From: an uncultured Oscillospiraceae bacterium
GTDB taxonomy: Bacteria > Bacillota > Clostridia > Oscillospirales > Oscillospiraceae
Direction: 5' to 3'
Length of the DNA stretch: 36,919 nucleotides
Assembly: GCA_964418735.1 (NCBI GenBank)
Contig: CAYQMY010000001.1
Location: 1 to 36,919, forward strand
The position numbers were made by a program, and so were the translations under genes. A model generated the notes under the pieces. That model searched no databases, had not been told where the DNA came from, and saw only the letters and a list, made by a program, of their open reading frames with translations. Shown in pieces: positions 1,873-23,220 of the stretch (the first letter of the stretch is position 1; each line of letters starts with the position of its first letter).

Positions 1873-2664
1873 ATGGTCAAAGTTGAAAAGGATTTTGCTC
1901 AAAACATGTTTGGTATTCGCGGCAAGGTTGCGCTTGTAACCGGTGCCACGGGCGCTTTGGGCGGCGCAGTTGCCAAGGCTTACGGCTATCAGGGTGCGAA
2001 GGTCGTAATGACTGCCCGAAACGCTGAAAAGCTCAGGGAGCTGGAGGCTGAGTTCAAGACCGAAGGTATAGAGTGCTCGATCTATGCTGCCGATCCCGGG
2101 TCCGAATCCGATGTTAATAAGCTAATAGGCTTTGCGATTGAGAAATACGGTGAACTCAACATCCTCGCGGTCTGCCATGGATACAACAGCCCCAAGGGAA
2201 TTCTGGAGCAGAGCGTTGAGGAATGGCAGAAGATTATGGACGCCGACCTTAAGAGCGTTTACGTTGTCTGCAAGGCAGCGGCCGAGCAAATGGTGGCGCA
2301 GAACAAGGGCGGAAAGCTTGTCGTTACCTCGTCCGCGCGCAGCAAGATGGGCATGAAGGGCTACACGGGCTACTGCGCGTCCAAGGGCGGCTGTGATCTG
2401 ATGATTCAGTCTATGGCAATTGATCTTGCCCCCTATCACATAAACGTCAACACAATTAATCCGACCGTTTTCCGTTCTGAGCTTACAGCGTGGATGTTTG
2501 ACCCCGAGTCCGCAGTCTACCAGAACTTCTTAAAGCGCCTTCCAATTGGGCGTCTGGGCGAGGTGCAGGACTTTATTGGGCTTGCAACCTTCCTCGCGTC
2601 ACCGGCATCGGACTTTTTGACGGGCGGAAACTATGACGCCACTGGCGGATACTGGAGCAACTGA
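1873..2664 (+). CDS. short-chain dehydrogenase/reductase (SDR); candidate phloroglucinol reductase by context
   Basis: It has the Rossmann motif TGATGALGG, a catalytic Ser (SSARS) and the YxxxK motif (YCASK). AAGGAAGGG lies 8 nt before the ATG at 1873. The functional sub-call rests only on neighbourhood. Confidence 0.85.
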
Positions 2665-2665
2665 T

Positions 2666-3604
2666 ATGAAAGAGATAAAAAATGTTGTCGTAGTCGGAGC
2701 TGGCATGATGGGCAATGCCCTGGCTCAGGTTTTTGCCTCCGACGCTAAGCTGAACGTAGTTCTTAAGACCCGTTCTTTGAAGGACGACCGCTATGAGGCG
2801 ATAGAAAACAACCTCGACATTATGATTGCCAGAGGAGCCGCGACAGAGGAAGAAAAGAAGGCCATAATAAGCCGCATTAACTTTGTAACAGACGATGCGC
2901 AAGCGTACACAGATGCAGATTTCGTCATCGAGTGCTATCCGGAGGTTATGGAGACAAAGCAGGAGCTTTTTGCCTGCGTGGAAAAATACTGCCGCGACGA
3001 TTGCATCCTCGCAACAAACACCTCGGTTATGAGCCCGACGGAGATTTCCGCAAAATGCAAGCACAGAGAACGTGTGGTCGGCGCTCACTTCTGGAATCCG
3101 GGACATTTGATACCGCTTGTTGAGGTGGTAAAGTCTGACTTCACCAGCGAGGAGGTTATGCAGGCCACCATAGAGCTTCTAAACCGCGTTGGCAAGAAAC
3201 CTATTTATTGCAAAAAGGATGTTCCCGGCTTTGTCGCTAACCGCCTGCAGCACGCCCTCTGGAGAGAAGCGTTTTACATGGTTGAAAACGGTATCGCAGA
3301 CCCCGAAACCGTTGACGACGCCTGCAAATACGGTCCTGGTCTGCGCTGGCCGGTCATGGGTCCGATGGAAAATTCGGATCTGGTCGGCATAGAGCTTACA
3401 AACAACATTCATAAATACATACTTAAGCACCTTGCCGACAACCACGAGCCCTCTCATATTCTCGAAGAGATGCTGGCGAGGGGAGATCTCGGTTTCAAAA
3501 GCGGTAAGGGCTGGCAGGAGTGGACGCCCTCGCAGATGAAGGCCTCCGCTAACGGCCTTAAGGAGTACCTCATAGACTACGCCGCCTCAAAGCGCAAGAA
3601 ATAG
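2666..3604 (+). CDS. 3-hydroxyacyl-CoA dehydrogenase-fold NAD(P) oxidoreductase; candidate 3-hydroxy-5-oxohexanoate dehydrogenase by context
   Basis: It has VVVVGAGMMGNALA (GxGxxG) and GAHFWNPGHLIPLVEV (the HxFxP/E signature of the 3HCDH family). The ATG at 2666 sits 2 nt after the SDR stop. The 2633 start in the ORF track would overlap the SDR gene. Confidence 0.85.
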   Translation: MKEIKNVVVVGAGMMGNALAQVFASDAKLNVVLKTRSLKDDRYEAIENNLDIMIARGAATEEEKKAIISRINFVTDDAQAYTDADFVIECYPEVMETKQELFACVEKYCRDDCILATNTSVMSPTEISAKCKHRERVVGAHFWNPGHLIPLVEVVKSDFTSEEVMQATIELLNRVGKKPIYCKKDVPGFVANRLQHALWREAFYMVENGIADPETVDDACKYGPGLRWPVMGPMENSDLVGIELTNNIHKYILKHLADNHEPSHILEEMLARGDLGFKSGKGWQEWTPSQMKASANGLKEYLIDYAASKRKK

Positions 3605-3645
3605 CTTTACGTGGCGCAAATTAATAATTTTGGAGTGAAATAACA

Positions 3646-4584
3646 ATGGGAAAGAAAGTATTCGTAGATTTGTCACATCCGTTTAGTGCGGAAATACCGC
3701 GCTGGCCATATTTTGACAAGCCGGTAATTGATAATAACCACACCATGGCAAAGGGCGGAGTTCTGACACAGAAGATTACCTGCACCATGCACACGGGCAC
3801 ACACGCCGATGCTCCCCGTCACGTTATGGAAAAGGAATTCGACGGCAGAAGAGCCCGTTACACCCACGAAATGCCTGTTGACGCTTACACCGGTGATGCC
3901 GTGTGCCTTCCGATAGAGGTTGAGCGCTGGGGACTTATCGGACCGGAGCATCTTGAAGCGGCCTGCAAAAAGGTCGGCATCAAGCCGGAAGAGCTTGAGG
4001 GCATGGTCGTCTGCCTCAACACAGGAATGCACCGCAAGTTTGATGATTCCAAGGAGTACTATCACTATTCCTGCGGAACGGGTGTTGAAGCCGGAAAATG
4101 GTTTGTCAAGCACAAGGTTAAGTGCGTCGCTATGGACAGCCAGGCACTGGATCATCCGCTGCACACCGCGATGGGCAATAACGGAATGACCCGCATGAAC
4201 CTTTTAGGCGCTTCGGGCAAACCCATCACCGAGGAGTACGCAGAGCAGTTTGGCGAAGAGGCTTATGCCGAATTTGATAAAGAGGTCTACATCAAGCTTC
4301 ACGGCAAGGAAGCCTATGACAAGAAGTTCGGAGATTTAGAGGAGCTTGGCTGCTGGGGCACTTGGGAGCCCTGCCATAAGCAGATGCTGGGCCACGGCAT
4401 AGTCGGCGTTGAAAACCTCGGCGGAGATTTGGATAAGGTCTCCGGAAAGCGCTTCCGTTTCTACTGCTTCCCGCTTCGATGGTATCTGGGCGACGGCTCC
4501 ATGGTTCGCTGCGTAGCCGAAATCGACGAGGGCGATATAAATGACGTTCCTGACAGGACCTATACCTACGGCGGAAATATTTAG
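3646..4584 (+). CDS. cyclase-family metal-dependent hydrolase (kynurenine formamidase-like fold); candidate dihydrophloroglucinol cyclohydrolase by context
   Basis: It carries the HTGTHADAPRH metal-binding motif (HxGTHxDxPxH) typical of the putative-cyclase family. A GGAG lies upstream of the ATG. Confidence 0.8.
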   Translation: MGKKVFVDLSHPFSAEIPRWPYFDKPVIDNNHTMAKGGVLTQKITCTMHTGTHADAPRHVMEKEFDGRRARYTHEMPVDAYTGDAVCLPIEVERWGLIGPEHLEAACKKVGIKPEELEGMVVCLNTGMHRKFDDSKEYYHYSCGTGVEAGKWFVKHKVKCVAMDSQALDHPLHTAMGNNGMTRMNLLGASGKPITEEYAEQFGEEAYAEFDKEVYIKLHGKEAYDKKFGDLEELGCWGTWEPCHKQMLGHGIVGVENLGGDLDKVSGKRFRFYCFPLRWYLGDGSMVRCVAEIDEGDINDVPDRTYTYGGNI

Positions 4585-4620
4585 GTAAACACTGAATTTT
4601 ATTAAAAAGGAGAACTTAAA

Positions 4621-5466
4621 ATGGCAGATATTAAAAATAAGAGAATTATAACCGTTGCCACGACGGGAGCTTGGCCAACAAAGGATAACACTCCGAATGT
4701 GCCTATAGAGCCGGCTGAAATTGCCGAGGAAATCTATAATTGCTGGAAAGCTGGCGCGGCGATTGCTCACATCCATTGCAGAGACAACGAAGGAAAGGCT
4801 GCAATGATTTTTGAGAAGTTTGAGGAGACGGTAAAACTTCTGCGTGCCAAAAAGGACTGTGACATAATAATCAACCTCACCACCTCGGGCGGTGTTAACC
4901 TCCTTGAGGAGGACAGAATAAAGCCTTTCTACGAGCTTGTGCCGGATATGGCCTCCTATGACTGCGGAACTATGAACTGGCAGAATGTCACGGTATTCGA
5001 GAACAATCCCAAGTTCCTTGAAAAGCTCGGAACACTTATGCAGGAAAAGGGAGTCAAGCCTGAAATTGAGGTTTTTGATCCCGGTATGATTTACAACGCA
5101 GGATATCTTTTGAAAAAGGGCTTTATTAAAGCGCCGCTCCACTTCCAGTTTTGCATGGGCGTGCCCGGCGGAATCGGAGCTTCGACTAAAAACCTCGTAT
5201 TCATGAAGGACACGATGGAAGCGGTAGCACCCGGCTCCACATGGTCCGCGTTCGGCGTTGGCGCTGGAGCAATGGAAATTCTTTACGCGACTATAGCAAT
5301 GGGCGGTAATATCCGTGTGGGCATGGAGGACAATGTCTATTACAAAAAGGGCGTTTTGGCGGACAGCAACATGCAGTTTGTTTCCCGTGCAAAGCGGATT
5401 ATAGAGGAATTCGGCTGCGAAGCGGCTACGCCCGCCGAAGCCAGAGAAATACTTGGCCTTAAATAA
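4621..5466 (+). CDS. beta-keto acid cleavage enzyme (BKACE/DUF849, Kce family); candidate triacetate acetoacetate-lyase by context
   Basis: The N-terminus ITVATTGAWPTKDNTPNVPIEPAEIAEE, the IAHIHCRD motif (His-x-His zinc ligands) and IRVGMEDN (Glu ligand) are hallmarks of the 3-keto-5-aminohexanoate cleavage enzyme family. An AAAGGAGAA RBS is present. Confidence 0.85.
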   Translation: MADIKNKRIITVATTGAWPTKDNTPNVPIEPAEIAEEIYNCWKAGAAIAHIHCRDNEGKAAMIFEKFEETVKLLRAKKDCDIIINLTTSGGVNLLEEDRIKPFYELVPDMASYDCGTMNWQNVTVFENNPKFLEKLGTLMQEKGVKPEIEVFDPGMIYNAGYLLKKGFIKAPLHFQFCMGVPGGIGASTKNLVFMKDTMEAVAPGSTWSAFGVGAGAMEILYATIAMGGNIRVGMEDNVYYKKGVLADSNMQFVSRAKRIIEEFGCEAATPAEAREILGLK

Positions 5467-5471
5467 AGGGA

Positions 5472-5514
5472 TTCAGATGAAGCGGCATCTATTCTGTATG
5501 CCGCTTCATCTGAA
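5472..5514 (+). other. perfect 17-bp stem / 9-nt loop hairpin between the BKACE and thiolase genes (intra-operon stem-loop or leaky terminator)
   Basis: ttcagatgaagcggcat (5472-5488) pairs perfectly with atgccgcttcatctgaa (5498-5514). No U-tract follows on the + strand. Confidence 0.5.
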
Positions 5515-5582
5515 AAGCCGTGCTGAATATAAAAAAGCAAACGGATTAGCCCTAACTAGATAAATAGTGTGGAGGTTCTTCA

Positions 5583-6773
5583 GTGAAAGAAATATATATA
5601 GTAAACTGCTGCAGAACTGCCGTAGGCAGTTTCGGAGGAAGCTTAAAAGATACGAAGGCAGCGGAATTGGGTGCTGTCGTGATTAAGGAAGTTTTGGAAC
5701 GCAGCGGTGTAAAGGCCGAGCAGGTAGATGAGGTTGTGTTCGGATGTGTGCTTACGGCTGGACAGGGACAGAATGTTGCCCGTCAGGCCGCAATAGGGGC
5801 TGGTCTGCCCGTAGAGGTTCCTGCATTTACGCTGGATATGGTCTGCGGCTCCGGAATGAAAGCTGTCATTGAGGCAGCGAGAGCGATAATCGCGGGAGAT
5901 GCCGATATTGTTGTTGCGGGCGGTACCGAAAACATGTCCGCCGCACCATATGCCGTACCTGCTGCCCGCTGGGGCGCAAGAATGGGTGAGAGCAAAATGG
6001 TTGACACTATGGTCAACGACGCGCTTTGGGATGCTTTCAACAATTACCACATGGGCATTACCGCCGAAAACGTGTGCCAGCAGTGGGGCCTCACGCGTGA
6101 AGAGCTGGATGAGCTTGCACTTTCCTCTCAGGTTAAAGCGGGCGCCGCAAAAGCTGCCGGAAAATTTGAAAATGAAATAGTGCCTGTAGCAATCAAGACG
6201 AAAAAAGGTACATTAAGCTTTGAGGCCGATGAGTACCCGAGAAGCGATACCAGCGCGGAAATGCTTGCAAAGCTAAGGCCCGCTTTTAAAACCGACGGGG
6301 GCAAGGTGACAGCCGGAAACGCCTCCGGAATCAACGACGGAGCAGCGGCTATTCTGGTCGCATCGGAAGAAGCTGTTAAAAAATACGGACTGAAACCAAT
6401 GGCAAAGCTTGTAGGCTGGGGACAGGGCGGAGTAGACCCAAAGATCATGGGAGTCGGGCCGGTGCCTGCGTCGAAAAACGCTCTCAAAAAAGCTGGGCTG
6501 ACGATTTCGGACATCGACCTTGTGGAAGCGAACGAGGCTTTTGCCGCGCAGGCTCTTGCCGTGTCACGGGAACTGGGCTTTGACATGAAAAAGGTCAACG
6601 TAAACGGTGGAGCGATTGCCATAGGTCATCCTGTTGGTGCCTCCGGTGCTCGCATTATTGTTACTCTCCTCCATGAGATGCAGAAGCGGCCGGACGCAAA
6701 GCGCGGACTCGCAACACTTTGTATCGGCGGAGGAATGGGAACAGCGACCGTATTTGAAAAGTGCGGTTCATAA
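5583..6773 (+). CDS. atoB: acetyl-CoA C-acetyltransferase (thiolase II)
   Basis: It has the nucleophile Cys motif [21 protein letters not shown] (His) and CIGGGMG (the second catalytic Cys). The GTG start lies 7 nt after GGAGG. Confidence 0.93.
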
Positions 6774-6792
6774 AACTAGCAGGAGGAAATTA

Positions 6793-7482
6793 ATGCCAAA
6801 GTTTATTACACTTAAGGAAGCTGTCGCCATGATCCCGGACGGGGCGTCAATAATGGTGGGCGGTTTTATGGGTTGCCGCAATCCGCACAATGTCATCGAT
6901 GAACTGTCGAAAAGCGGAAAGGGCAACTTTACACTGATATGCAACGACGGCGCGAAGCCCGGCGGCCCCACTGGCGAGGAGTATTACGGTGTAGCCAAGC
7001 TTATACATAATCACCAGGTTAAGCATCTGGTTGCGACACATGTGGGCCTCAATCCCGAGGTTGGAGCTCAGATGAACGACGGGTCGATGAAGGTCGACCT
7101 GATTCCCCAAGGCTCATTTGCTGAAATGATACGTGCCGGGGGAGCCGGACTCGGAGGCGTGCTAACGCCGACGGGCGTCGGAACCATAATTGAGGACAAC
7201 AAGGAATTCACCCATTCCGTACAGGAAATCGACGGAAAGAAGTATCTGCTGATGAGACCGATACGCGCTGATTTTGCTCTTATCAGCGGCTTTAATGTGG
7301 ATAAAGCGGGCAACGTTTGGTACAAGGGCGCTACCCGCAACTTCGCTCTCGCGATGGCGACAGCAGCGGATGTGGTTATTGTTGAGGCCGACAATGTCGT
7401 CGAGATCGGCGAAATAGAGCCTGAAAACGTAATGACGCCGGGTGTTATCGTGGATTATGTCATTGACGGGGGTAAAGCCTAA
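6793..7482 (+). CDS. atoD: 3-oxoacid/acetoacetate CoA-transferase subunit A
   Basis: MPKFITLKEAVAMIPDGASIMVGGFMGC is a typical subunit A N-terminus. The ATG at 6793 follows AGGAGGAAA. The ORF-track start at 6634 would overlap the thiolase by 140 nt. Confidence 0.9.
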   Translation: MPKFITLKEAVAMIPDGASIMVGGFMGCRNPHNVIDELSKSGKGNFTLICNDGAKPGGPTGEEYYGVAKLIHNHQVKHLVATHVGLNPEVGAQMNDGSMKVDLIPQGSFAEMIRAGGAGLGGVLTPTGVGTIIEDNKEFTHSVQEIDGKKYLLMRPIRADFALISGFNVDKAGNVWYKGATRNFALAMATAADVVIVEADNVVEIGEIEPENVMTPGVIVDYVIDGGKA

Positions 7483-8141
7483 TGGAAAAAGAGAAGATAA
7501 AAAGCTATATTATCGCCCGTGCCGCGAAGGAATTAAAGGACGGCGATGTAGTTAACCTTGGAATAGGTATGCCAACAATGATTCCATCGTTCCTTCCGGA
7601 AAACGTTAAGGTCACAGTTCAGGCCGAAAACGGTCTGATGGGAGTCGTACCCTGTGTGGGGGAATCCTTGGAGCACAGCCTTTACAGCGTCGACGCGGGT
7701 GCTACGCCTGTTATGGTATCGCCCGGCGGGTGCTATTTTGATTCGTGTGTATCCTTCGGCCTCATCAGGGGCGGACACATAGACGCTACAATGCTGGGTG
7801 CGCTTGAGGTTGACGAGAAGGGCAATATTTCAAACTGGATTATACCTGGCAAAAAGCTTCCCGGCATGGGCGGTGCCATGGATCTCGTGGTGGGAGCCAA
7901 AAAGGTAATCGTCACAATGGAACATACCCAAAAGGGGGAGCCCAAGATACTTAAAAATTGCCGGTTGCCCTTGACGGCGCTTAATTGCGTAGACTTGATT
8001 ATCACGGAAATGGGTGTAATGGAGGTTACGGATAAGGGTCTTGTGCTTACGGAAATAAACCCCGAGTATACACCGGAAGAGGTGCAGAGGGTTACCGAGG
8101 CCGAGCTCATTATTTCTCCCGAGCTTAAACCCATGGCCTGA
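7482..8141 (+). CDS. atoA: 3-oxoacid/acetoacetate CoA-transferase subunit B
   Basis: The catalytic glutamate motif is AENG (VQAENGLMG). The start overlaps the subunit A stop (TAATG), which suggests translational coupling. Confidence 0.9.
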   Translation: MEKEKIKSYIIARAAKELKDGDVVNLGIGMPTMIPSFLPENVKVTVQAENGLMGVVPCVGESLEHSLYSVDAGATPVMVSPGGCYFDSCVSFGLIRGGHIDATMLGALEVDEKGNISNWIIPGKKLPGMGGAMDLVVGAKKVIVTMEHTQKGEPKILKNCRLPLTALNCVDLIITEMGVMEVTDKGLVLTEINPEYTPEEVQRVTEAELIISPELKPMA

Positions 8142-14213: not shown

Positions 14214-15098
14214 TTACTTAAGTCCGGAGAGCTTGAGAATGTCGGGAATCTTGGACTCCCAGCCAAGAGCCATGATGTGTACGCCCTGGCAGTAGTCCTT
14301 ACACTCTTTGATCAGACGGGCTGAAATCTCAACACCGGTGATGCCGGCCTTGGTCTTTTCCTTGTCGGCCTTAAGCTCCTCGATCATCTCGTCGGGAACG
14401 CTGATTCCGGCGACATTGGCGTTCATGTATTTAACCATGCCGACGTTCTTCGGAATAACGATTCCAAGCTGTACAGGTACGCCGAACTGCTTGGCTCTCT
14501 CCATGAATTTTATGAACTTCTCGGGCTCGTAAACAGCCTGAGTCTGGAAGTATTCAGCGCCGGCCTTAACCTTTGCTTCCATCTTTGCAAGCTGTACGTC
14601 AACGGAGTCGCTGCAGGGGGACACGACAGCGCCCTTAGAAAACTTCGGGGGCTCGCCGTCAAGCGGATTTCCGGCCATGTCTTCTCCACCCTCCATCTTC
14701 CTGATCATGTGCAGGAGGGATACGGAGTCCAGATCGAAAACAGGCTTTGCCTGAGGATTGTCACCAAGAGTGGTGTGGTCGCCGGTAAGGCAGAGAATAT
14801 TGTCAATACCGAACATAGCCGCGCTCAAAATGTCAGACATAAGACCAATGCGGTTCCTGTCACGGCAGGTCATCTGGAAAATCGGGTTGAGACCCTTATC
14901 CTTCAGAGCCTTGCATGTTGCCAAGGAGCCGAGACGCATAACGGAAGACTGGTTATCCGTTACGTTGACCGCATGGACGTTGCCCTTCAAAAATTCATCT
15001 GCTTCGTGCAGCAAATGATCAATATTATAGCCCTTAGGGGGGCCTACTTCAGCCGTAACTACAAATTCGCCGCGCTGAAATAACTCGGATAGCATCAT
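14214..15098 (-). CDS. metF: methylenetetrahydrofolate reductase catalytic subunit
   Basis: It has a typical MTHFR N-terminus and core (FVVTAEVGPPKG, AVNVTDN, MTCRDRNR, ILCLTGDH). It is followed in the operon by metV. An AAGGAG RBS is present. Confidence 0.9.
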   Translation of the reverse strand: MMLSELFQRGEFVVTAEVGPPKGYNIDHLLHEADEFLKGNVHAVNVTDNQSSVMRLGSLATCKALKDKGLNPIFQMTCRDRNRIGLMSDILSAAMFGIDNILCLTGDHTTLGDNPQAKPVFDLDSVSLLHMIRKMEGGEDMAGNPLDGEPPKFSKGAVVSPCSDSVDVQLAKMEAKVKAGAEYFQTQAVYEPEKFIKFMERAKQFGVPVQLGIVIPKNVGMVKYMNANVAGISVPDEMIEELKADKEKTKAGITGVEISARLIKECKDYCQGVHIMALGWESKIPDILKLSGLK

Positions 15099-15135
15099 TT
15101 CTTATCGCTCCTTATAAAAATTATCATTAGCAAAA

Positions 15136-15765
15136 TTAGGCCTCGTCCTGAGACTCTTTGAAGGGCTTCGCGTAATCGCGCACTTTTGCCTCGTATTTAA
15201 GAGTGTCGAGCTTGCCGAGCTTTTCGAGCTTGCGGTAAATACGCTCCCAGCCGCACTCCATGTCTTTGTTAACTTCGCACTTGCCGTTTTTCGCTCCGCC
15301 GCACTGACCGTTCACGAGGCTCTTTGAGCAGGCTGTTATCGGGCAGATTCCGCCGGTGCTGTTAAGATAGCATTCGCCGCACTGGCCGCAGTCAAACTCT
15401 AGCGGAGTAACGCCCTGGAAGCCCGGAAGCGGGCAGGTGTCACAGCAGGCGACGACTCTTTTGTTCTCGAGAAATGCCGCGACGGTCTGTACGCCGACGC
15501 CGCAGGAAAATACCAGTACCGTGTCAGCAGCTTCGATCTTATCTGCGAACTTTTTGAGCTGGAAACGCAGATTATCGGGATTGCAGATATAGTCTCTGGT
15601 AATTATTTCGGTTACATTTCCGCCTGCGGAAAGCTCCTTTTGAAGCTCTTCGGCCTCATGCTCGGGGAAATATACTTCCTTACAGCCGTGGCAGTTTATG
15701 ATAACGGTTTTTCCCTTTGCCAGAGCTTCGATGGTTTCCTTTGATTTCAGTTGGGTAATGAGCAT
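15136..15765 (-). CDS. metV: MetV (MTHFR C-terminal-like Cys-rich subunit)
   Basis: It has the Cys-rich block CGQCGECYLNSTGGICPITACSKSLVNGQCGGAKNGKCEV characteristic of MetV. Its ATG lies 1 nt after the rnfC2 stop. Confidence 0.85.
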   Translation of the reverse strand: MLITQLKSKETIEALAKGKTVIINCHGCKEVYFPEHEAEELQKELSAGGNVTEIITRDYICNPDNLRFQLKKFADKIEAADTVLVFSCGVGVQTVAAFLENKRVVACCDTCPLPGFQGVTPLEFDCGQCGECYLNSTGGICPITACSKSLVNGQCGGAKNGKCEVNKDMECGWERIYRKLEKLGKLDTLKYEAKVRDYAKPFKESQDEA

Positions 15766-15766
15766 T

Positions 15767-17728
15767 TTATTTACCCTCCCTTATAGCTTTTTTTCCGATT
15801 TTTATCATGGTGACAATCGGAATTTTAGACGAACAAATTGTCTGGCAGCATCCGCACTCGATGCAGTCCATAACGCTCTGGTCCTTAAAGCCCTGCCAGT
15901 TCGAGGTGCCGGCGTACTTGGTGAAGTACAGGGGCTTCAGCTCCATCGGACAAACGTCGGCGCAGCGGCCGCACTTGATGCAGGGATAGGGCTCAGAGGT
16001 GACAGGCTCAACTGCGATGACGCCGTTTGTGCCCTTCATTACGGGAACAGAAAGATCACTGAGCACAAAGCCCATCATCAGACCGCCCATTTTAATGGTT
16101 ACATCGTCAGTAGTTACGCCGCCGCAGTAGTCGACGAGCGCCTTGACGGGAGTACCGATTTTAACAATATAGTTGGCGGGGTTTTTGATTCTCTCGCCGG
16201 TCACGGTTACAACGCGCTCGATAAGCGGCATACCGGTTTTGATGGCGTCGGAAATGGCCTTGACGGTGCTGACGTTGCTAACAACCGCGCCAACATCGGC
16301 GGGCAGTCCGCCGGACGGAACGCTGCGTCCCAAAACCCTCTTGATAAGCATTTTTTCCGCGCCCTGCGGGTACTTGGTTTTAGCTACGACAACCTCGATG
16401 TTGTCTATATCGGCCGTCTTTGCCTGCATAACCTCGATAGCGTCGGGCTTGTTGTCTTCGATTGCGATGATGCCCTTTTCAGCGCCGGAAGCCTTAAGCA
16501 TAGCCTTAAGTCCGTAGATGATGTCATCTGCATACTCGACCATAACGCGGTGGTCGGCGGTGAGAAGCGGCTCGCATTCGCAGCCGTTGAGAAGAACGGT
16601 ATCGACCGGCTTCGGCGGCTTCATCTTGACGGAGGTCGGGAAGCCTGCGCCGCCCATGCCAACGATGCCCTTTTCGCGGACAAGCTCGACGAGCTCATCT
16701 GCAGTCATGGAATCAAGATCTCCGGCGGGCCTTACGGACTCGTGCAGAGTGTTCTTTCCGTCAGACTCGATTACAACGGACATTACGTTTCCGTTTGTGG
16801 CATGAAGTCTCGGCTCAACAGCGAGTACCTTACCGCTGACGCTTGAGTGAATGTTTGCGCTGATAAAGCCCTTGGCCTCACCGATCTTCTGGCCGACCTT
16901 GACGAGGTCTCCGGCGGCAACAATCGGCTCTGCGGGTGCGCCGGCGTGCTGACACATGGGTATAACAACGGTATGTACCTCGGGGAAGACCTTAAGAGAG
17001 AGGTGCTCGCTGTATTCCTTGTGCTCCGAGGGGTGAATTCCGCCGTAGTAACCCTCAAAACGCTTTTCTCGGACAGATTTGACGTATTCGTTGATTAGCT
17101 TGAAGTTTACCTTTGAGTAGTCGCGAACCTGAACCGGCTGATTGAGAAATTCCTGAAGCATACCTTGCTTGTCGAGCTTCTCATAGATCTTCTGCCAGCC
17201 GCAGTCCATGTTCTTGTTGACTTCGCATTTGCCGTTTTTTGCGCCGCCGCACTGACCGTTGATGAGGCTCTTCGAGCAGTCAACAATGGGACAGATGCCG
17301 CCGGTAAGGTTTAAGTAGCACTGGCCGCAGGCGTCGCAGAGCGTTTTTGTCAGTGCCATGCCGTGATTGCCCCTGAAAGCTGTAGAATCGCTGGCAGCAT
17401 AAACAGGCTTTTCTGATAAATCGGCAACCGTCTGTATGCCGAGACCGCAGGAAATAACAAAAATGTTATCTACGCCCTCAGGCAAAACGGACTGAAGCTT
17501 CTTCTCAGTCGTTGTCTTGTTGCACAGAAAATCTACCTTTGCGCAGCCTACGAAAGTTTTGCCCTGCTCCTTGGCAAGCTCCTCAAATTTGTCGCATTCC
17601 GGCTCTTCAAATGTTTCAAGTTCCTTGAAGCATTTGTTGCAGGCTACAACAAAAATGTTTTGCTTATCGGCAAGTAGTGGGGCCAACTCTTCAGCCCTTT
17701 TCAGCTTGAACTTGGTGTAATCTTCCAA
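15767..17728 (-). CDS. rnfC2: RnfC-like NADH-binding iron-sulfur flavoprotein with an N-terminal MetV-like module (RnfC2-type MTHFR subunit)
   Basis: The N-terminal roughly 200 aa are paralogous to MetV (CDACGQCYLNLTGGICPIVDCSKSLINGQCGGAKNGKCEV). The central region has the VGMGGAGFPT motif (RnfC/NuoF-type nucleotide/FMN site). The C-terminus has two ferredoxin motifs, CIKCGRCADVCP and CIECGCCQTICS. A TTG start lies 7 nt after GGGGGG. Confidence 0.8.
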   Translation of the reverse strand: MEDYTKFKLKRAEELAPLLADKQNIFVVACNKCFKELETFEEPECDKFEELAKEQGKTFVGCAKVDFLCNKTTTEKKLQSVLPEGVDNIFVISCGLGIQTVADLSEKPVYAASDSTAFRGNHGMALTKTLCDACGQCYLNLTGGICPIVDCSKSLINGQCGGAKNGKCEVNKNMDCGWQKIYEKLDKQGMLQEFLNQPVQVRDYSKVNFKLINEYVKSVREKRFEGYYGGIHPSEHKEYSEHLSLKVFPEVHTVVIPMCQHAGAPAEPIVAAGDLVKVGQKIGEAKGFISANIHSSVSGKVLAVEPRLHATNGNVMSVVIESDGKNTLHESVRPAGDLDSMTADELVELVREKGIVGMGGAGFPTSVKMKPPKPVDTVLLNGCECEPLLTADHRVMVEYADDIIYGLKAMLKASGAEKGIIAIEDNKPDAIEVMQAKTADIDNIEVVVAKTKYPQGAEKMLIKRVLGRSVPSGGLPADVGAVVSNVSTVKAISDAIKTGMPLIERVVTVTGERIKNPANYIVKIGTPVKALVDYCGGVTTDDVTIKMGGLMMGFVLSDLSVPVMKGTNGVIAVEPVTSEPYPCIKCGRCADVCPMELKPLYFTKYAGTSNWQGFKDQSVMDCIECGCCQTICSSKIPIVTMIKIGKKAIREGK

Positions 17729-18048: not shown

Positions 18049-19056
18049 TTATAAGCGTTCCAGCAGCATTTCAGCAAACTCGTCCAGATCCTCGGGCATG
18101 CCCTGCTTTAGCTCCCCGCATTTTGAGCAGAAGGGGCGCGCGTTGCGTTCTCCGCGCAGAAACATGGATTGAAGTCTCCATAGGTGGATGCTGTTCCAGA
18201 CCTTTTTGGGAGACTTGTAAGCACCGAACTCATTTCCAAGAGGCAGGACGCGCTTCCAGTCAAAGCGGCACATGCTGTAGCTGCCATCGGAGTTTATCGC
18301 AAACTCATAAAAAATATAGGGACAGACCTTAACTTCATGGGCTTCATAGCCGAGTATGCCCACATTTTCGTTTATTTCCACCTTTTCCTGCTTGAAGGTG
18401 GGCCAATAATCGATGGCATGCTCAACGGATATGCCGTCGGTTATGTCGCCGAAGGTGTCGTAAAATTGCTGTATTTGTTCCTCTGTCAAAATGTCGCCGT
18501 TTATTTTTATGTTCATTTCACACTGCTTGCGGTTTTCGTAAAAAAAGGCGATGTTTTCGACAAATTTTTCGTAGTCTATCTTGTATCGTGAAAAATCCTC
18601 ATACTGCTCAGCATTTATGCCCTCAACTGATATGTTGATACGGTCAAGTCCAGCTTCTATTATTTTTAAGCTCAGCTCAGGAGTCAAAAGCGAGCCGTTT
18701 GTGGTGGTGTCAACCTTTTCGCAGCAGCCGGATTCCTTTGCATAGCGCACCATGTCGGGGAAATGGGGATTAAGCAGGGGCTCACCGTCCTTATATAGGC
18801 GTATTACCCTTACCTTGTCATCAAATTCGCAAACGCCGTCGATAATGCGCTTATACAGCTCGAAGTCCATTATTCCGTGTCCGCGGCCCCTGGTGGATTT
18901 CATTATCTCGGGGTCACCCGTCGGACAGAATTTGCACTGGAAGTTGCACTTATCGCAGGGGTCAATATATATGACATAAGGCGTTCTAAGTGGAATGGCG
19001 TCCTTAAGCTCATTGCGATCGTATAAATCTATGCGTGGTTTTATCTGCGCTTTCAT
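18049..19056 (-). CDS. radical SAM protein with a C-terminal Cys-containing (SPASM/twitch-like) extension
   Basis: It has the CNFQCKFCP motif (CxxxCxxC) near the N-terminus and a GEPLL motif. C-terminal cysteines occur in VCPYIFYEF ... SMCRFDW ... PFCSKCGE. A GGAGG RBS is present. Confidence 0.85.
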   Translation of the reverse strand: MKAQIKPRIDLYDRNELKDAIPLRTPYVIYIDPCDKCNFQCKFCPTGDPEIMKSTRGRGHGIMDFELYKRIIDGVCEFDDKVRVIRLYKDGEPLLNPHFPDMVRYAKESGCCEKVDTTTNGSLLTPELSLKIIEAGLDRINISVEGINAEQYEDFSRYKIDYEKFVENIAFFYENRKQCEMNIKINGDILTEEQIQQFYDTFGDITDGISVEHAIDYWPTFKQEKVEINENVGILGYEAHEVKVCPYIFYEFAINSDGSYSMCRFDWKRVLPLGNEFGAYKSPKKVWNSIHLWRLQSMFLRGERNARPFCSKCGELKQGMPEDLDEFAEMLLERL

Positions 19057-19185
19057 GTTTGCCTCCGATTATTGGATAGAGCTGAGAGACCTGAAGAAAA
19101 TTCAAGTGGGCTCCAAATTGCCTCGATTATAATATATAAGCTAGCAAATGACAAGGCAATAATCTGGATGGAGCAGTACAAAGCT

Positions 19186-19221
19186 AAAAGCAGTCACCCC
19201 TCAAGAAATGAAGGATGACTG
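19186..19221 (-). terminator. candidate terminator after the MaoC-family gene
   Basis: An imperfect hairpin, cagtcacc/ggatgactg, is followed on the minus strand by CTTTT. Confidence 0.45.
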
Positions 19222-19232
19222 ATTTTTTAACA

Positions 19233-19688
19233 TCACTCGGTTTTTGGCTCTCTGGCTTTCATCATTAAAACCCATTCACATTCGCATATCACCTTGCCGC
19301 CGTGGTTTACGAGATTCGCGCTCATCTTCAGAACACCTCGCCCGGGCTTTTTGCTCGGAACAAGCTCTGTAGGCGTCATTTCAAGGTGAACCGTATCCCC
19401 GATTTCAAGAGGAGCCTTATACTTGATGCTGAGCTCCATGAAGGCGATAGTGGTTCCGGCAAACATACCAGTTTGATTGGACATACCTGTCATTATGACG
19501 GGGCCGAGCATGCCGTGGGCAATTCTTTTTCCGAACATGTTGAGCTTTCCGAATTCCTCGTCTGTGTGAAGAGGGTTGAAATCGCCCGAAAGTCCGGCGA
19601 AATTTATTACGTCGGTCTCAGTTATAGTTCTTGCCTGACTTTTATAGCACTTGCCTACCTCAAAATCCTCAAGATAAAAGCCTTCCAT
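19233..19688 (-). CDS. MaoC-family (R-specific) enoyl-CoA hydratase/dehydratase
   Basis: It carries the hydratase-2 motif FAGLSGDFNPLHTDEEFG and is a single hot-dog-fold-sized protein of 151 aa. Confidence 0.85.
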   Translation of the reverse strand: MEGFYLEDFEVGKCYKSQARTITETDVINFAGLSGDFNPLHTDEEFGKLNMFGKRIAHGMLGPVIMTGMSNQTGMFAGTTIAFMELSIKYKAPLEIGDTVHLEMTPTELVPSKKPGRGVLKMSANLVNHGGKVICECEWVLMMKAREPKTE

Positions 19689-19721
19689 TTTAACGTTCCT
19701 TTCTTGTATGTGTACTATTGA

Positions 19722-20495
19722 TTAATAATATTTCGGAGGGCGTTTCTCCTTAAATGCCTTGAAACCCTCGATTTGGTCAGATGTTCCGAAGCTGGCGGTC
19801 ATATAGCCGAGCTCGATATCCTTGCCGACATCGACACCGACGCTCTCTCCCGCTGCAAGCGCGGCCTTGAGAAGGGATATGGCGGAGGCGGAATTTTTTG
19901 CGATAATTTCGGCTTCTGCCTTGACCTCGGCGGCAAACGCGTCCGCGGGTACGACCTTGTTTATAAGCCCAATCGAGAGAGCCTCGTCAGCCTTAATACG
20001 GCGGCCGGTAAACAAGAGCTCCTTAGCCCTAATCGTGCCAATGCACTTTGGGAGGCGCTGCGTTCCGTTAAAGCCGGGCACGATTCCGAGCGTGACCTCC
20101 GGCATCGCAAAGGAAGCCTTCTCGTGCGCAATCCTAATGTCGGTGCAAAGCACAAACTCACAGCCGCCGCCGAAGGCGTAACCGTTTATCGCGGCTATTG
20201 TGGGCTTGGGCATGGTTTCAATGCGGCGAAAGAGAGCCGCGCCCCTGCGGGAATACTCGATTATGCCCATTGTGTCCTTGCTTTCCATCTCGGCAATGTC
20301 AGCACCTGCAATAAACGCCTTGCCCTCGCCTGTGAAAACGACGACGCGAACTTCCTTGTCGGCAGATGCTTCTTCGACAGCTGCGGAAAGCTCGTCTAAA
20401 AGCTGTGAGTTAAGGGCGTTCATCGCCTCGGGTCTATGAAAGGTTATGGTAGCGATACCGTTTTCCCTGGCGTAAAGTATATACTTATAGTCCAT
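19722..20495 (-). CDS. enoyl-CoA hydratase/isomerase (crotonase family)
   Basis: It has FTGEGKAFIAGADIAEM and GYAFGGGCEFVLCTDIRIA. I prefer the ATG at 20495 (MDYKYILY), preceded by GGGAGGAACAA, because the 20573 start would overlap the upstream gene. Confidence 0.9.
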   Translation of the reverse strand: MDYKYILYARENGIATITFHRPEAMNALNSQLLDELSAAVEEASADKEVRVVVFTGEGKAFIAGADIAEMESKDTMGIIEYSRRGAALFRRIETMPKPTIAAINGYAFGGGCEFVLCTDIRIAHEKASFAMPEVTLGIVPGFNGTQRLPKCIGTIRAKELLFTGRRIKADEALSIGLINKVVPADAFAAEVKAEAEIIAKNSASAISLLKAALAAGESVGVDVGKDIELGYMTASFGTSDQIEGFKAFKEKRPPKYY

Positions 20496-20508
20496 TTGTT
20501 CCTCCCAA

Positions 20509-21744
20509 TTATTTATCCGATTTCCAGACATAAAGCGCGCCGTTTTCGAGCATCGACTCAATCTTATTATCATCGTAGCCGAGCTCCTTTAAAACCTCCG
20601 GGCCGTTTTCACCTATGAGAGGGGCGACCTTCGGCATGGCTTTTTCTATGGAATCGAAGTAGCCGGGCGTGCGGGTTATGCGGCGGACGTTTCCATTAGG
20701 ACACTCAAGGTCGTAGTAGCAGCCCATGGCCTCCGCCTGCGGGTCCTCGAGCATTTCCTGCCAGTTAAAGGCAAGGGCGTGGGGGATATCGCCGTCAACG
20801 AGGATGGTTTTCCACTCAGACCATTTTTTGGTTTTGAAATATGTAAGCAGTATATCGGTAAACTCATGCAGGAAGCCACTCTTGACCATGTCTGCCTGAG
20901 GCCAGTACTTGCCGCAGTCAACGAGGTCCTGCCGTCCGATAGCCTTGCAGAAGTGCTTAAAGCGCTGGTCGTAATCGGGCATTGCTATCTGAACTATACG
21001 GTCGTCGGCTGTGGTATAACCGCCGTTGAGCGGGTTCGTGTTGTTGTACATGCCGATGGGGAAGGTGCGGGCGTAGCCGTCGTACTGGGAGGCCATCAGC
21101 ATGATGGAGTGGTTCCATATAGCGTTCTCATATAGGCTTGCGACGACGAGATCACCTTTTCCGGTTTTCTGAGAGCGGAGATAAGCGGTCAGAACGTTGA
21201 GAGCAAGCACAAGACCCACGTTGTTGTCTCCGATGCCGGGAATAGCGGGATGCGGAGGCCCTCCGGCGCGGCGGTTGACATGTATGTATCCGCCGCGGCT
21301 TAAAAAGGCAGTCATGTCGTAGCCCGGCAGATCCTTGTCCGGCCCCTTTACTCCGTAGCCGGTGCACATGCCGTAGATAAGCTTAGGAAAGCGCTCCTTT
21401 ATAGAATTATAGTCAAGCCCTGCGCGCATTAAAGCTTGCTCGCGCCAGTTTGTGATGAGAATGTCCGCCGTAGCTAGGAGCTTTAAAAACGCTTCCTTGC
21501 CCTCGGGATTTTTCATATCGAGGGAAATGCAGCGCTTGTTTCCGTTGAGGTATTCCCAGGTGGTATTCTCCAGCATATCCTGCGGACGCCCCTCGTTTAC
21601 GCCGGTATAGCGGAGAGGGTCACCCTGTGCGCTTTCGATAATTATTACGTCTGCGCCGTGGTCGGCAAAGTATCTTGCGGCGGCGGGGGCCGCTACGAAA
21701 TTGGCGAGCTGTATTACTCTGACTCCTGATAAGGCCAGGTCCAT
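20509..21744 (-). CDS. family III CoA-transferase (CaiB/BaiF family)
   Basis: It has the N-terminus LSGVRVIQLANFVAAPAAARYFADHGADVIIIESAQGDPLR, typical of CaiB/BaiF/Frc-type transferases. A GAGGAGG RBS is present. Confidence 0.85.
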   Translation of the reverse strand: MDLALSGVRVIQLANFVAAPAAARYFADHGADVIIIESAQGDPLRYTGVNEGRPQDMLENTTWEYLNGNKRCISLDMKNPEGKEAFLKLLATADILITNWREQALMRAGLDYNSIKERFPKLIYGMCTGYGVKGPDKDLPGYDMTAFLSRGGYIHVNRRAGGPPHPAIPGIGDNNVGLVLALNVLTAYLRSQKTGKGDLVVASLYENAIWNHSIMLMASQYDGYARTFPIGMYNNTNPLNGGYTTADDRIVQIAMPDYDQRFKHFCKAIGRQDLVDCGKYWPQADMVKSGFLHEFTDILLTYFKTKKWSEWKTILVDGDIPHALAFNWQEMLEDPQAEAMGCYYDLECPNGNVRRITRTPGYFDSIEKAMPKVAPLIGENGPEVLKELGYDDNKIESMLENGALYVWKSDK

Positions 21745-21814
21745 TTTTTTTCCTCCTCAAGTATTATTAATAAGCGAAACGAAGACATTTGTTTATATTA
21801 TACTACATTATTTC

Positions 21815-21855
21815 ACAATCAGGGCAAATTTTTATTATAAAATTGCCCTGATTGT
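21815..21855 (-). terminator. strong hairpin between the permease and the CoA-transferase genes (terminator or attenuator)
   Basis: acaatcagggcaaatt (21815-21830) pairs with aattgccctgattgt (21841-21855). The loop is AT-rich and the downstream U-tract is weak. A TATAAT-containing stretch follows before the CoA-transferase gene. Confidence 0.5.
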
Positions 21856-21894
21856 CGAAAAAGTCCCGAATAGGGCAGAAGCTCGTCAGAGCTT

Positions 21895-23220
21895 TTATGC
21901 GTAGCCGAACAAATAACAAAGCGGTATGAGCAGACATAGCGAGATTGTAGGTATGACAACATTGGTGACACCTGCCGCTATGTAAGAGGTCTTGTGGGTG
22001 TTTCCTGTGTAATTAATAACCGATACAACCAGACCGCAGTGGGGGAGGGAGTCTAGTGTGAGCGCGGCGAGCGATACGCATCTCGCAAGTCCTTCAAGCT
22101 GTGCTGTGGTCGTAATAAGGCCGGTATCTATGTAGTTCGCTTTTACGACCGGCAGAGCGATGCCCTCGCCGCCCGTACCTGAGCCAGTTATGCCCGCGAT
22201 GAGTCCTACCGCTATACTCGCAGAGATAAGCGGCGAGCCACCGATTTTGGTAATAGCGTCGGTCATTATCGTGAAGGCTGGCAGAGTTTTGACAACAGTG
22301 CCGAAGCCGACTATGGCAGCGGTGTTGAACAGTGTAATGAGGCCCCCCGTAGTGCCTGCGGTGAGGGTTTTCCAGATGTTTTTCCAATTAAGATTTGCGT
22401 AGAAGCATATGAGGGCCGCAACTATGCCTCCGGTAAGAGATGGGGCGACGCCAATCTTTGTTGCGTTGAGAAGTACAAGCAGGACTACCATTGGTACAAG
22501 GCTGAGCCAGAAGTTGGGGAGCTTTTTCCCCTCTATGGCCTTCATTGCCTCTTCGTCGGCCGCCGTAGCCTCGAAATGCTTGCCCTGCTTTTTGGCTCTG
22601 CGCACGCAGTAATATATCCAAATGAAAACAAGAACCATTTCAAAGGCGGCAGCAATCATGCCAGGAGCGAAGGCGGCAGTGGTGCTGACCTTGAGAAACT
22701 GAGTGGGAATTAAGTTGTGAGCCGCGGGGGAACCAGGCATCATCGCGGTAGCAGTACCGGCGCCGGCAAAATAAAGCGCAGGAAGGAGATGCCGAGTGAT
22801 GTCGGCCTTCTTAAACATAGAGAGCATGAGGGGATACATTGCGAAGAAGGCGACAAATACGGATACGCCGCCGTATGAAAGCAGGAAACCGGCAAGGATT
22901 ATGGAGGGAACTATCGCTTTTTCGCCAAGCTTATTTATTATGCCGCCTGCTATCGCGTCGGCAGCTCCCGACACTTCAAACAGCTTTCCGAATATGGCAC
23001 CAAGTATAAATAGCCAGAAATAGCTTCCGAAATAACCTGAAATTCCGCTGACATAGGTTGTGACTATCATATCCATAGCTTTAATATTCGCCGCTGTAAA
23101 AAGTGCGGTGGTGACAACTAAGAATAATGAGGAGATAAGCGCGGTGAAGAAAATTGGGACGCCTCGGAAAACTAGAACTATTAGCAGCGCTAAACCGAGA
23201 ACCATCAGTACGACCTGCAT
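21895..23220 (-). CDS. GntP-family-like organic anion permease
   Basis: It is a 441-aa polytopic membrane protein. Its N-terminus and length resemble gluconate/hydroxy-acid:H+ symporters. The family call was made by eye and needs an HMM check. Confidence 0.55.
   Translation of the reverse strand: MQVVLMVLGLALLIVLVFRGVPIFFTALISSLFLVVTTALFTAANIKAMDMIVTTYVSGISGYFGSYFWLFILGAIFGKLFEVSGAADAIAGGIINKLGEKAIVPSIILAGFLLSYGGVSVFVAFFAMYPLMLSMFKKADITRHLLPALYFAGAGTATAMMPGSPAAHNLIPTQFLKVSTTAAFAPGMIAAAFEMVLVFIWIYYCVRRAKKQGKHFEATAADEEAMKAIEGKKLPNFWLSLVPMVVLLVLLNATKIGVAPSLTGGIVAALICFYANLNWKNIWKTLTAGTTGGLITLFNTAAIVGFGTVVKTLPAFTIMTDAITKIGGSPLISASIAVGLIAGITGSGTGGEGIALPVVKANYIDTGLITTTAQLEGLARCVSLAALTLDSLPHCGLVVSVINYTGNTHKTSYIAAGVTNVVIPTISLCLLIPLCYLFGYA

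Follow-up and report, generated by a model that had tools for sequence, protein, structure and literature searches.

The DNA studied here is a stretch of 36,919 nucleotides from an uncultured Oscillospiraceae bacterium (assembly GCA_964418735.1, contig CAYQMY010000001.1, positions 1 to 36,919), referred to below as the window. Seven intact genes of the same orientation lie within 6.3 kb on its + strand, at positions 1873 to 8141. A first-pass annotation, based on protein families and gene context, had described them as a complete module for the anaerobic degradation of phloroglucinol, of the type that uses triacetate acetoacetate-lyase (TAL). The open reading frames (ORFs) of all seven families were found where it had placed them, the Pfam assignments agreed with it (E-values between about 1e-33 and 1e-104 for the seven proteins), and every motif that it had quoted, RVGMEDN included, was present in the translations. 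The corresponding enzymes of Clostridium scatologenes, namely CsPGR, the Mn2+-dependent CsDPGC, CsTfD and CsTAL, have been characterized, and the pathway has been reconstituted in vitro (Zhou et al. 2023, mBio; PMC10470551). The features found at the locus, with their predicted functions, are the following:

1 to 1362, + strand: FRD/AprA-like flavoprotein gene, 3' part (about 450 codons of a protein of about 560 amino acids); Pfam FAD_binding_2 and Succ_DH_flav_C

1407 to 1754, + strand: small single-domain cupin of 115 amino acids; Pfam Cupin_2

1873 to 2664, + strand: predicted phloroglucinol reductase (PGR), an NADPH-dependent short-chain dehydrogenase/reductase (SDR); Pfam adh_short, match to PDB 5g4k

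2666 to 3604, + strand: predicted (S)-3-hydroxy-5-oxohexanoate dehydrogenase (TfD); Pfam 3HCDH_N and 3HCDH, about 56% identical to CsTfD

3646 to 4584, + strand: predicted dihydrophloroglucinol cyclohydrolase (DPGC), a Mn-dependent C-C hydrolase of the cyclase family; Pfam Cyclase PF04199, E = 8.7e-33

4621 to 5466, + strand: predicted TAL, a Zn-dependent BKACE; Pfam BKACE, E = 3.3e-104

5472 to 5514, + strand: intercistronic hairpin in the TAL/thiolase gap, with a perfect 17-bp stem and a 9-nt loop

5583 to 6773, + strand: predicted acetyl-CoA C-acetyltransferase (thiolase); Pfam Thiolase_N and Thiolase_C, TIGR01930 score 501.5 (cutoff 240.55)

6790 to 7482, + strand: predicted acetoacetate:acyl-CoA CoA-transferase subunit A (CtfA/AtoD-like); Pfam CoA_trans, TIGR02429 score 183.8 (cutoff 128.5)

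7482 to 8141, + strand: predicted CoA-transferase subunit B (CtfB/AtoA-like); Pfam CoA_trans, TIGR02428 score 279.4 (cutoff 243.55)

The SDR, the dehydrogenase, the cyclase and the BKACE consist of 263, 312, 312 and 281 amino acids, as compared with 262, 311, 312 and 281 for CsPGR, CsTfD, CsDPGC and CsTAL, respectively. The length of the dehydrogenase is that obtained with the ATG at 2666, which comes 1 nt after the stop codon of the PGR gene; with the alternative upstream start, an ATG at 2633 in the same frame, the gene would overlap that of the SDR.

Residues that discriminate the four enzymes from their relatives have been described (PMC10470551): the TR(S/N) motif for NADPH in PGR, Trp20 and Tyr22 in DPGC, the retention of His, Ser and Asn together with the loss of Lys56 and Asn221 in TfD, and a Trp in TAL in place of Glu14 of Kce. 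The comparisons with CsPGR and CsTAL were made with the mass-spectrometry peptides of the data set of the same study (PMC10470551), which cover 150 and 138 residues, respectively. Over the 150 residues the window SDR was 56% identical to CsPGR. It matched PDB 5g4k/5g4l, which we take to be the phloroglucinol reductase of Conradt et al. 2016, with E = 5e-113, and was 66.7% identical to 5g4k over 261 columns. T47-A-R-N50 of the window protein aligned with TGRN of 5g4k, in agreement with the NADPH motif TxR(S/N).

The identity of the cyclase to CsDPGC was 83.6% over 311 columns, an approximate value for this alignment, and 84% over 166 peptide residues. W20 and Y22 are present, where isatin hydrolase has Ile/Leu, and the residues of the metal site (H49-TGT-H53-A-D55, H244 and E256) are conserved. 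A PDB sequence search with this protein gave only remote matches to kynurenine formamidase and no DPGC structure with which to compare it. When genomes were scanned with the window DPGC, 454 relatives were obtained, the best 80 of which define the loci compared in this work; the DPGCs of these 80 loci were 86-94% identical to that of the window. An assembly index queried for exact copies of the DPGC and TAL sequences gave no match.

The dehydrogenase was about 56% identical to CsTfD, again an approximate figure, and has in common with it a C-terminal extension and a TfD-specific insertion (YGPGLRWP in the window protein, YSFGLRLP in CsTfD). In comparison with HBD of C. butyricum, the catalytic S117, H138 and N188 are kept as S131, H152 and N203, whereas two residues that contact CoA in HBD are lost, K56 being replaced by Ala69 and N221 by Gly236 (numbering of the window protein from the 2633 start). 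This is exactly the residue pattern described for CsTfD. TfDs linked to such clusters are only about 50-60% identical among themselves, thus the divergence of the window TfD is normal for the family. The role that the first-pass annotation had given to this dehydrogenase was borne out by the identity to CsTfD and by the residue pattern; the name HOHD, which it had used, does not stand, the published name being TfD.

Carnitine dehydrogenases also have the 3HCDH fold, and BKACEs cleave many beta-keto acids. The dehydrogenase and the BKACE of the window might then form a carnitine-type pair, i.e. a carnitine dehydrogenase and a dehydrocarnitine cleavage enzyme, or another pair acting on a beta-hydroxy and a beta-keto acid. 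The window dehydrogenase did match two NCBIfam models of carnitine dehydrogenase, but weakly, the scores of 151 and 149 bits being far under the cutoffs of 414 and 592. The insertion and the C-terminal extension, which it has in common with CsTfD, and the embedding of the two genes with a 67%-identical PGR and an 84%-identical DPGC also argue against such a pair, and we consider it extremely improbable.

The best PDB match of the BKACE was Kce (2y7d; E = 1e-61, 39% identity). H50, H52 and E236 of the window protein align with conserved His, His and Glu residues of Kce, which presumably are the Zn ligands. At the position of Kce Glu14 the window protein has W18 (GAW versus GAE in the alignment to 2y7d). 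In Kce this Glu contacts the 5-amino group, and the change from Glu to Trp has been used to tell TAL from Kce (PMC10470551). Over the 138 residues of the CsTAL peptides, the window BKACE was 54% identical to CsTAL and Kce 41%. When the same site was inspected in 63 BKACEs linked to DPGC, Trp was found in 53, Tyr in 2 and Ile in 8, the latter being of the long Dehalococcoidia type, and Glu in none. A neighbour-joining tree was built of 174 sequences, comprising the window protein, the BKACEs of the loci and Kce, together with sequences representing the clusters that the hits of an exhaustive HMMER search form at 50% identity. In this tree the window protein belongs to a clade of 58 members (56 with Trp, 2 with Tyr), and Kce to a separate clade of 20 members, 17 of which have Glu. 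The TAL residue, the genomic context and the distances agree with this placement. Grouping of the BKACE with Kce had been named in the first-pass annotation as a result that would speak against its proposal, and it was not observed. The Trp-for-Glu position, taken together with linkage to DPGC, provides a simple discriminator for TAL.

Among the NCBIfam models, the best for the window BKACE was Lys_ferment_KCE with 307.7 bits, below its cutoff of 382. NF053538 ('3,5-dioxohexanoate:acetyl-CoA acetone transferase', about 310 amino acids), whose nominal reaction, triacetate plus acetyl-CoA, is the same as that of TAL, gave 233.5 bits in two stretches, with a cutoff of 430. The same sub-threshold pattern was seen with the BKACE of locus L068 (Anaerostipes hominis), which is the closest relative of CsTAL among the loci compared (77% identity over the CsTAL peptides). 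A DPGC-linked BKACE of Dehalococcoidia (about 300 amino acids), for which a partial tblastn segment served as query, scored 396 bits on NF053538, which is likewise under the cutoff of 430. NF053538 fits a different, longer lineage of BKACEs, and NCBIfam lacks a model for BKACEs like CsTAL; current models leave such proteins nameless or Kce-like. Since the closest relative of CsTAL scores in the same way, and NF053538 represents the other lineage, the NCBIfam scores were dropped as evidence against TAL. The NF053538-like clade is linked to DPGC as well, in Dehalococcoidia, and the window TAL is 34-39% identical to its proteins; the two would thus be distinct BKACE lineages that probably do the same job.

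The match to Kce raises the question whether the genes for the BKACE, the thiolase, the CoA-transferase and the 3HCDH-fold protein could be a lysine-fermentation (Kce) module, with the SDR and the cyclase as unrelated neighbours. Lysine fermentation likewise ends with acetoacetate handled by CoA-transferase and thiolase, and both the best NCBIfam model and the best PDB match of the BKACE are those of Kce. Kce and the window TAL are TIM-barrel proteins of one family, and both would use acetyl-CoA in Claisen-type chemistry. However, the two differ in the residue at the amine-binding position (Glu14 versus Trp18), in their clades and in their genomic context, the identity between them is 39%, and the model score is below its cutoff. 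Pfam scans of 30 large ORFs, located between 16 and 33049, gave no hit to the kamA, kamDE, kdd and kal families, with no lysine aminomutase, 3,5-diaminohexanoate dehydrogenase or 3-aminobutyryl-CoA ammonia-lyase family among the results. Furthermore, the SDR and the cyclase co-occur with such a BKACE in dozens of genomes. Taken together, these observations leave a lysine-fermentation module with hardly any probability.

The preferred interpretation is a TAL-type phloroglucinol pathway, in which the steps would be as follows. PGR would reduce phloroglucinol with NADPH to dihydrophloroglucinol, the ring of which would be opened by DPGC and Mn2+ in a retro-Claisen hydrolysis to yield (S)-3-hydroxy-5-oxohexanoate. 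This compound would be oxidized by TfD with NAD(P)+ to 3,5-dioxohexanoate (triacetate), and TAL, as a Zn2+-dependent BKACE, would convert triacetate and acetyl-CoA to acetoacetate and acetoacetyl-CoA. CtfAB would turn acetoacetate into acetoacetyl-CoA, and the thiolase would split acetoacetyl-CoA into two acetyl-CoA, which would enter acetate/butyrate fermentation. We infer these enzyme activities and cofactor preferences, as well as induction by phloroglucinol, from the likeness of the sequences. In Collinsella, the phloroglucinol pathway reportedly also starts with PGR and DPGC, after which an aldolase splits 3-hydroxy-5-oxohexanoate in place of the TfD and TAL steps. Because TfD and TAL are both present, the window represents the TAL type and not the aldolase type.

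The cluster of C. scatologenes (CSCA_1081-1091) includes a thiolase (CSCA_1087) and CtfA (CSCA_1085), and in cells grown on phloroglucinol, PGR, DPGC, TfD, TAL and thiolase were reported among the prominent protein bands (PMC10470551). The seven-gene extent proposed in the first-pass annotation is consistent with this, the thiolase and CtfAB being members of the published cluster too. The two clusters have the same four core families with their diagnostic residues, thiolase, CtfA/B and a small cupin adjoining PGR. The identities to the C. scatologenes enzymes are about 84% for DPGC and about 55% for PGR, TfD and TAL. Gene order differs: in the window it is cupin-PGR-TfD-DPGC-TAL-thiolase-CtfAB, whereas in C. 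scatologenes, judged from the locus tags, cupin, PGR and DPGC come first, followed by CtfA (and presumably CtfB), thiolase and TAL, and TfD is located further downstream. The order PGR-TfD-DPGC-TAL is the same in Clostridium sp. ATCC BAA-442 (cblaster table, PMC10470551).

The 80 loci were labelled Clostridia, Spirochaetia, Dehalococcoidia and Proteobacteria, and the closest relatives were metagenome-assembled genomes (MAGs) from anaerobic digesters labelled Clostridiales, Sporobacter or Papillibacter. The set overlaps with the DPGC-bearing organisms listed in PMC10470551, with Clostridium intestinale and Anaerobacterium chartisolvens in both and also the genus Christensenella, which is represented there by C. 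minuta. Synteny was counted by tblastn in the 60 loci whose cyclase gene was flanked by at least 3 kb in both directions. At no more than 6 kb from DPGC, the SDR was found in 58 of these loci, TfD in 54, TAL in 55, CtfAB in 28 and thiolase in 19. With the SDR, the dehydrogenase and the BKACE this frequent near the cyclase, their co-location is not due to chance. Dozens of the 80 loci have their genes in the order cupin-PGR-TfD-DPGC-TAL. In three Clostridiales MAGs (L012, L016 and L020) all eight genes are arranged as in the window, with 81-96% identity to those of the window except for the TfD of L020.

In L020, cupin, PGR, DPGC and TAL were 89-96% identical to the window proteins and thiolase and CtfAB 82-92%, as opposed to 54% for TfD. 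Conversely, L001 and L014 have a TfD of the window type (85-86%) but a PGR that is 62-64% identical. The alleles of PGR and TfD are thus mosaic among close relatives, and this pattern suggests that genes may have been replaced one by one inside the operon. In eight Dehalococcoidia loci (L031, L037, L041, L042, L047, L056, L059 and L060) DPGC is paired with the longer BKACE lineage, and in Dehalococcoidia loci the identity between the SDR that adjoins DPGC and the window PGR is only about 31%. This arrangement has the appearance of a pathway variant with non-orthologous enzymes.

Could the substrate be not phloroglucinol itself but a substituted or related 1,3,5-trihydroxy or 1,3-dioxo ring, such as a methyl- or acyl-phloroglucinol or a resorcinol-type compound? 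The identity of about 55% of TfD and TAL to the assayed enzymes, the mosaic alleles of PGR and TfD, with the TfD of L020 as an example, and the uncharacterized oxidoreductase, cupin and TRAP-transporter genes further downstream (see below) would be compatible with this. On the other hand, it is DPGC that sees the ring substrate, and this enzyme is 84% identical to CsDPGC with the substrate-contact residues W20 and Y22 intact, while a mutual identity of about 50-60% is normal for TfDs. A different ring substrate is therefore very unlikely, although slightly less so than the lysine and carnitine alternatives.

Taking all this into account, the region is very probably an operon that encodes the entire TAL-type pathway of anaerobic phloroglucinol degradation. 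The integrity of the genes, their families, the identities, the diagnostic residues, the clade of the BKACE and the synteny were established directly. The assignment to phloroglucinol, which had formerly been founded on family and context, is now backed by measured identities of all four core enzymes. Several points weigh on the other side. The CsDPGC sequence was taken from a machine-read alignment in the supplement of PMC10470551 and that of CsTfD from machine-read figures and peptides, hence the approximate identities; TfD and TAL are just about 55% identical to assayed enzymes. The database entry of 5g4k/5g4l gives a generic molecule name, no NCBIfam equivalog scored above its cutoff with the window BKACE, and the BKACE tree is a neighbour-joining tree without bootstrap. 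Finally, neither a dedicated regulator nor an MFS transporter adjoining the operon was seen inside the window.

The locus is a further copy of a published (2023), widespread pathway. The pathway, its enzymes and their wide distribution are already known and have found their way into annotation tools, CAMPER among them; a cblaster search yielded 12,225 homologous clusters (PMC10470551). What the locus adds is an uncultured anaerobe that probably consumes phloroglucinol. Flavonoids and tannins, when broken down anaerobically, have phloroglucinol as their common end product. Such loci can be used to annotate the flow of polyphenol carbon in digesters, guts and anoxic soils.

Of the limits proposed for the module in the first-pass annotation, the genes between 1873 and 8141 stand, whereas the start at 1873 probably has to be moved to 1407, so that the conserved cupin is included. 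A homologue of the 115-residue cupin was located at most 6 kb from DPGC in 49 of the 60 loci and directly upstream of PGR in 39 of 55. The linkage spans loci labelled as several phyla, including some with rearranged gene orders, and in Dehalococcoidia loci the cupin is placed just after DPGC. The homologue in C. scatologenes, CSCA_1081, adjoins CsPGR (CSCA_1082). CSCA_1081 was detected by mass spectrometry in gel bands excised from phloroglucinol-grown cells; the word 'cupin' does not occur in the main text of that paper (PMC10470551), and a literature search for a role of a cupin in phloroglucinol degradation found nothing.

The HxH metal motif is not present in the 115-residue cupin. Invariant residues among 38 homologues include Y12, H17, E30, W37, E59, K60, Y62, E93, R95 and N99, and in the homologues of the loci the conservation of these ten residues is 95% or higher. 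The AlphaFold2 (AF2) model (pLDDT 92) is a minimal cupin nearest to TM1459. As a clue to function, a fold search was discarded: its matches were generic small cupins only (TM1459, RemF and DddK). We tentatively propose, while holding the contrary to be somewhat likelier, that the cupin is an overlooked fifth component of the pathway. In that case it could act on dihydrophloroglucinol, 3-hydroxy-5-oxohexanoate or triacetate in a tautomeric or stereoisomeric form, or serve to bind the substrate. It is not essential for the chemistry, because the pathway was reconstituted in vitro without it.

The stem-loop that had been noted after the BKACE gene was found as a perfect 17-nt inverted repeat with arms at 5472-5488 and 5498-5514, the sole inverted repeat of at least 12 nt between 1300 and 8400. 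Its folding energy is -31.8 kcal/mol (z = -6.0 versus shuffles). It is not followed by a T-run, therefore it is no canonical terminator. L012 and L016 have another hairpin at the same position, and at the TAL/thiolase gap of L020 no hairpin was found. The element fits an ordinary intercistronic hairpin. Scans for promoter-like and terminator-like sites gave no more sites than in shuffled sequences, and an Rfam scan of the entire window found no RNA families.

The flavoprotein gene at the left end (1-1362) runs off the start of the window with no upstream stop, and was treated as context outside the core module. The PDB chain closest to its product is the alpha subunit of PAPS reductase (8a8o). 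In relatives, a full-length homologue is located upstream of PGR, beside a DAPG/phloretin hydrolase (PF18089), a LysR regulator and an ORF of about 110 amino acids that resembles a 2x[4Fe-4S] ferredoxin; these upstream sets are at 4497-8236 in L002 and at 76-3868 in L016. As phloretin hydrolase releases phloroglucinol, the context in the relatives fits a feed from flavonoids to phloroglucinol, and it is possible that the flavoprotein set is a reductase in a dihydrochalcone/flavonoid feeder module.

Directly after CtfB, the + strand carries between 8254 and 14105 genes for a PF12831 FAD-dependent oxidoreductase (502 amino acids), two cupin-like paralogues of 164 amino acids with a mutual identity of 43%, and a TRAP transporter (DctQ, DctM and DctP). 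Informative matches were found neither for the oxidoreductase in PDB and NCBIfam nor for the cupin-like pair in PDB, NCBIfam and Pfam. The genes of this run are absent from all 80 related phloroglucinol loci. With neither matches nor a counterpart in the related loci, the oxidoreductase and the cupin-like pair were left out of the module.

Beyond this run, the - strand carries two further gene sets. One, at 14214-17728, consists of a MetF-like gene, a MetV-like gene (C-terminal MTHFR domain) and a fusion gene that joins a C-terminal MTHFR domain to RnfC/Nuo51-like FMN and 4Fe-4S domains; this set resembles an electron-transferring MTHFR of the acetogen type. The other, at 18049-23220, is a second acyl-CoA module with genes for a radical SAM/SPASM protein, a MaoC dehydratase, an enoyl-CoA hydratase, a family III CoA-transferase and a GntP-type permease.

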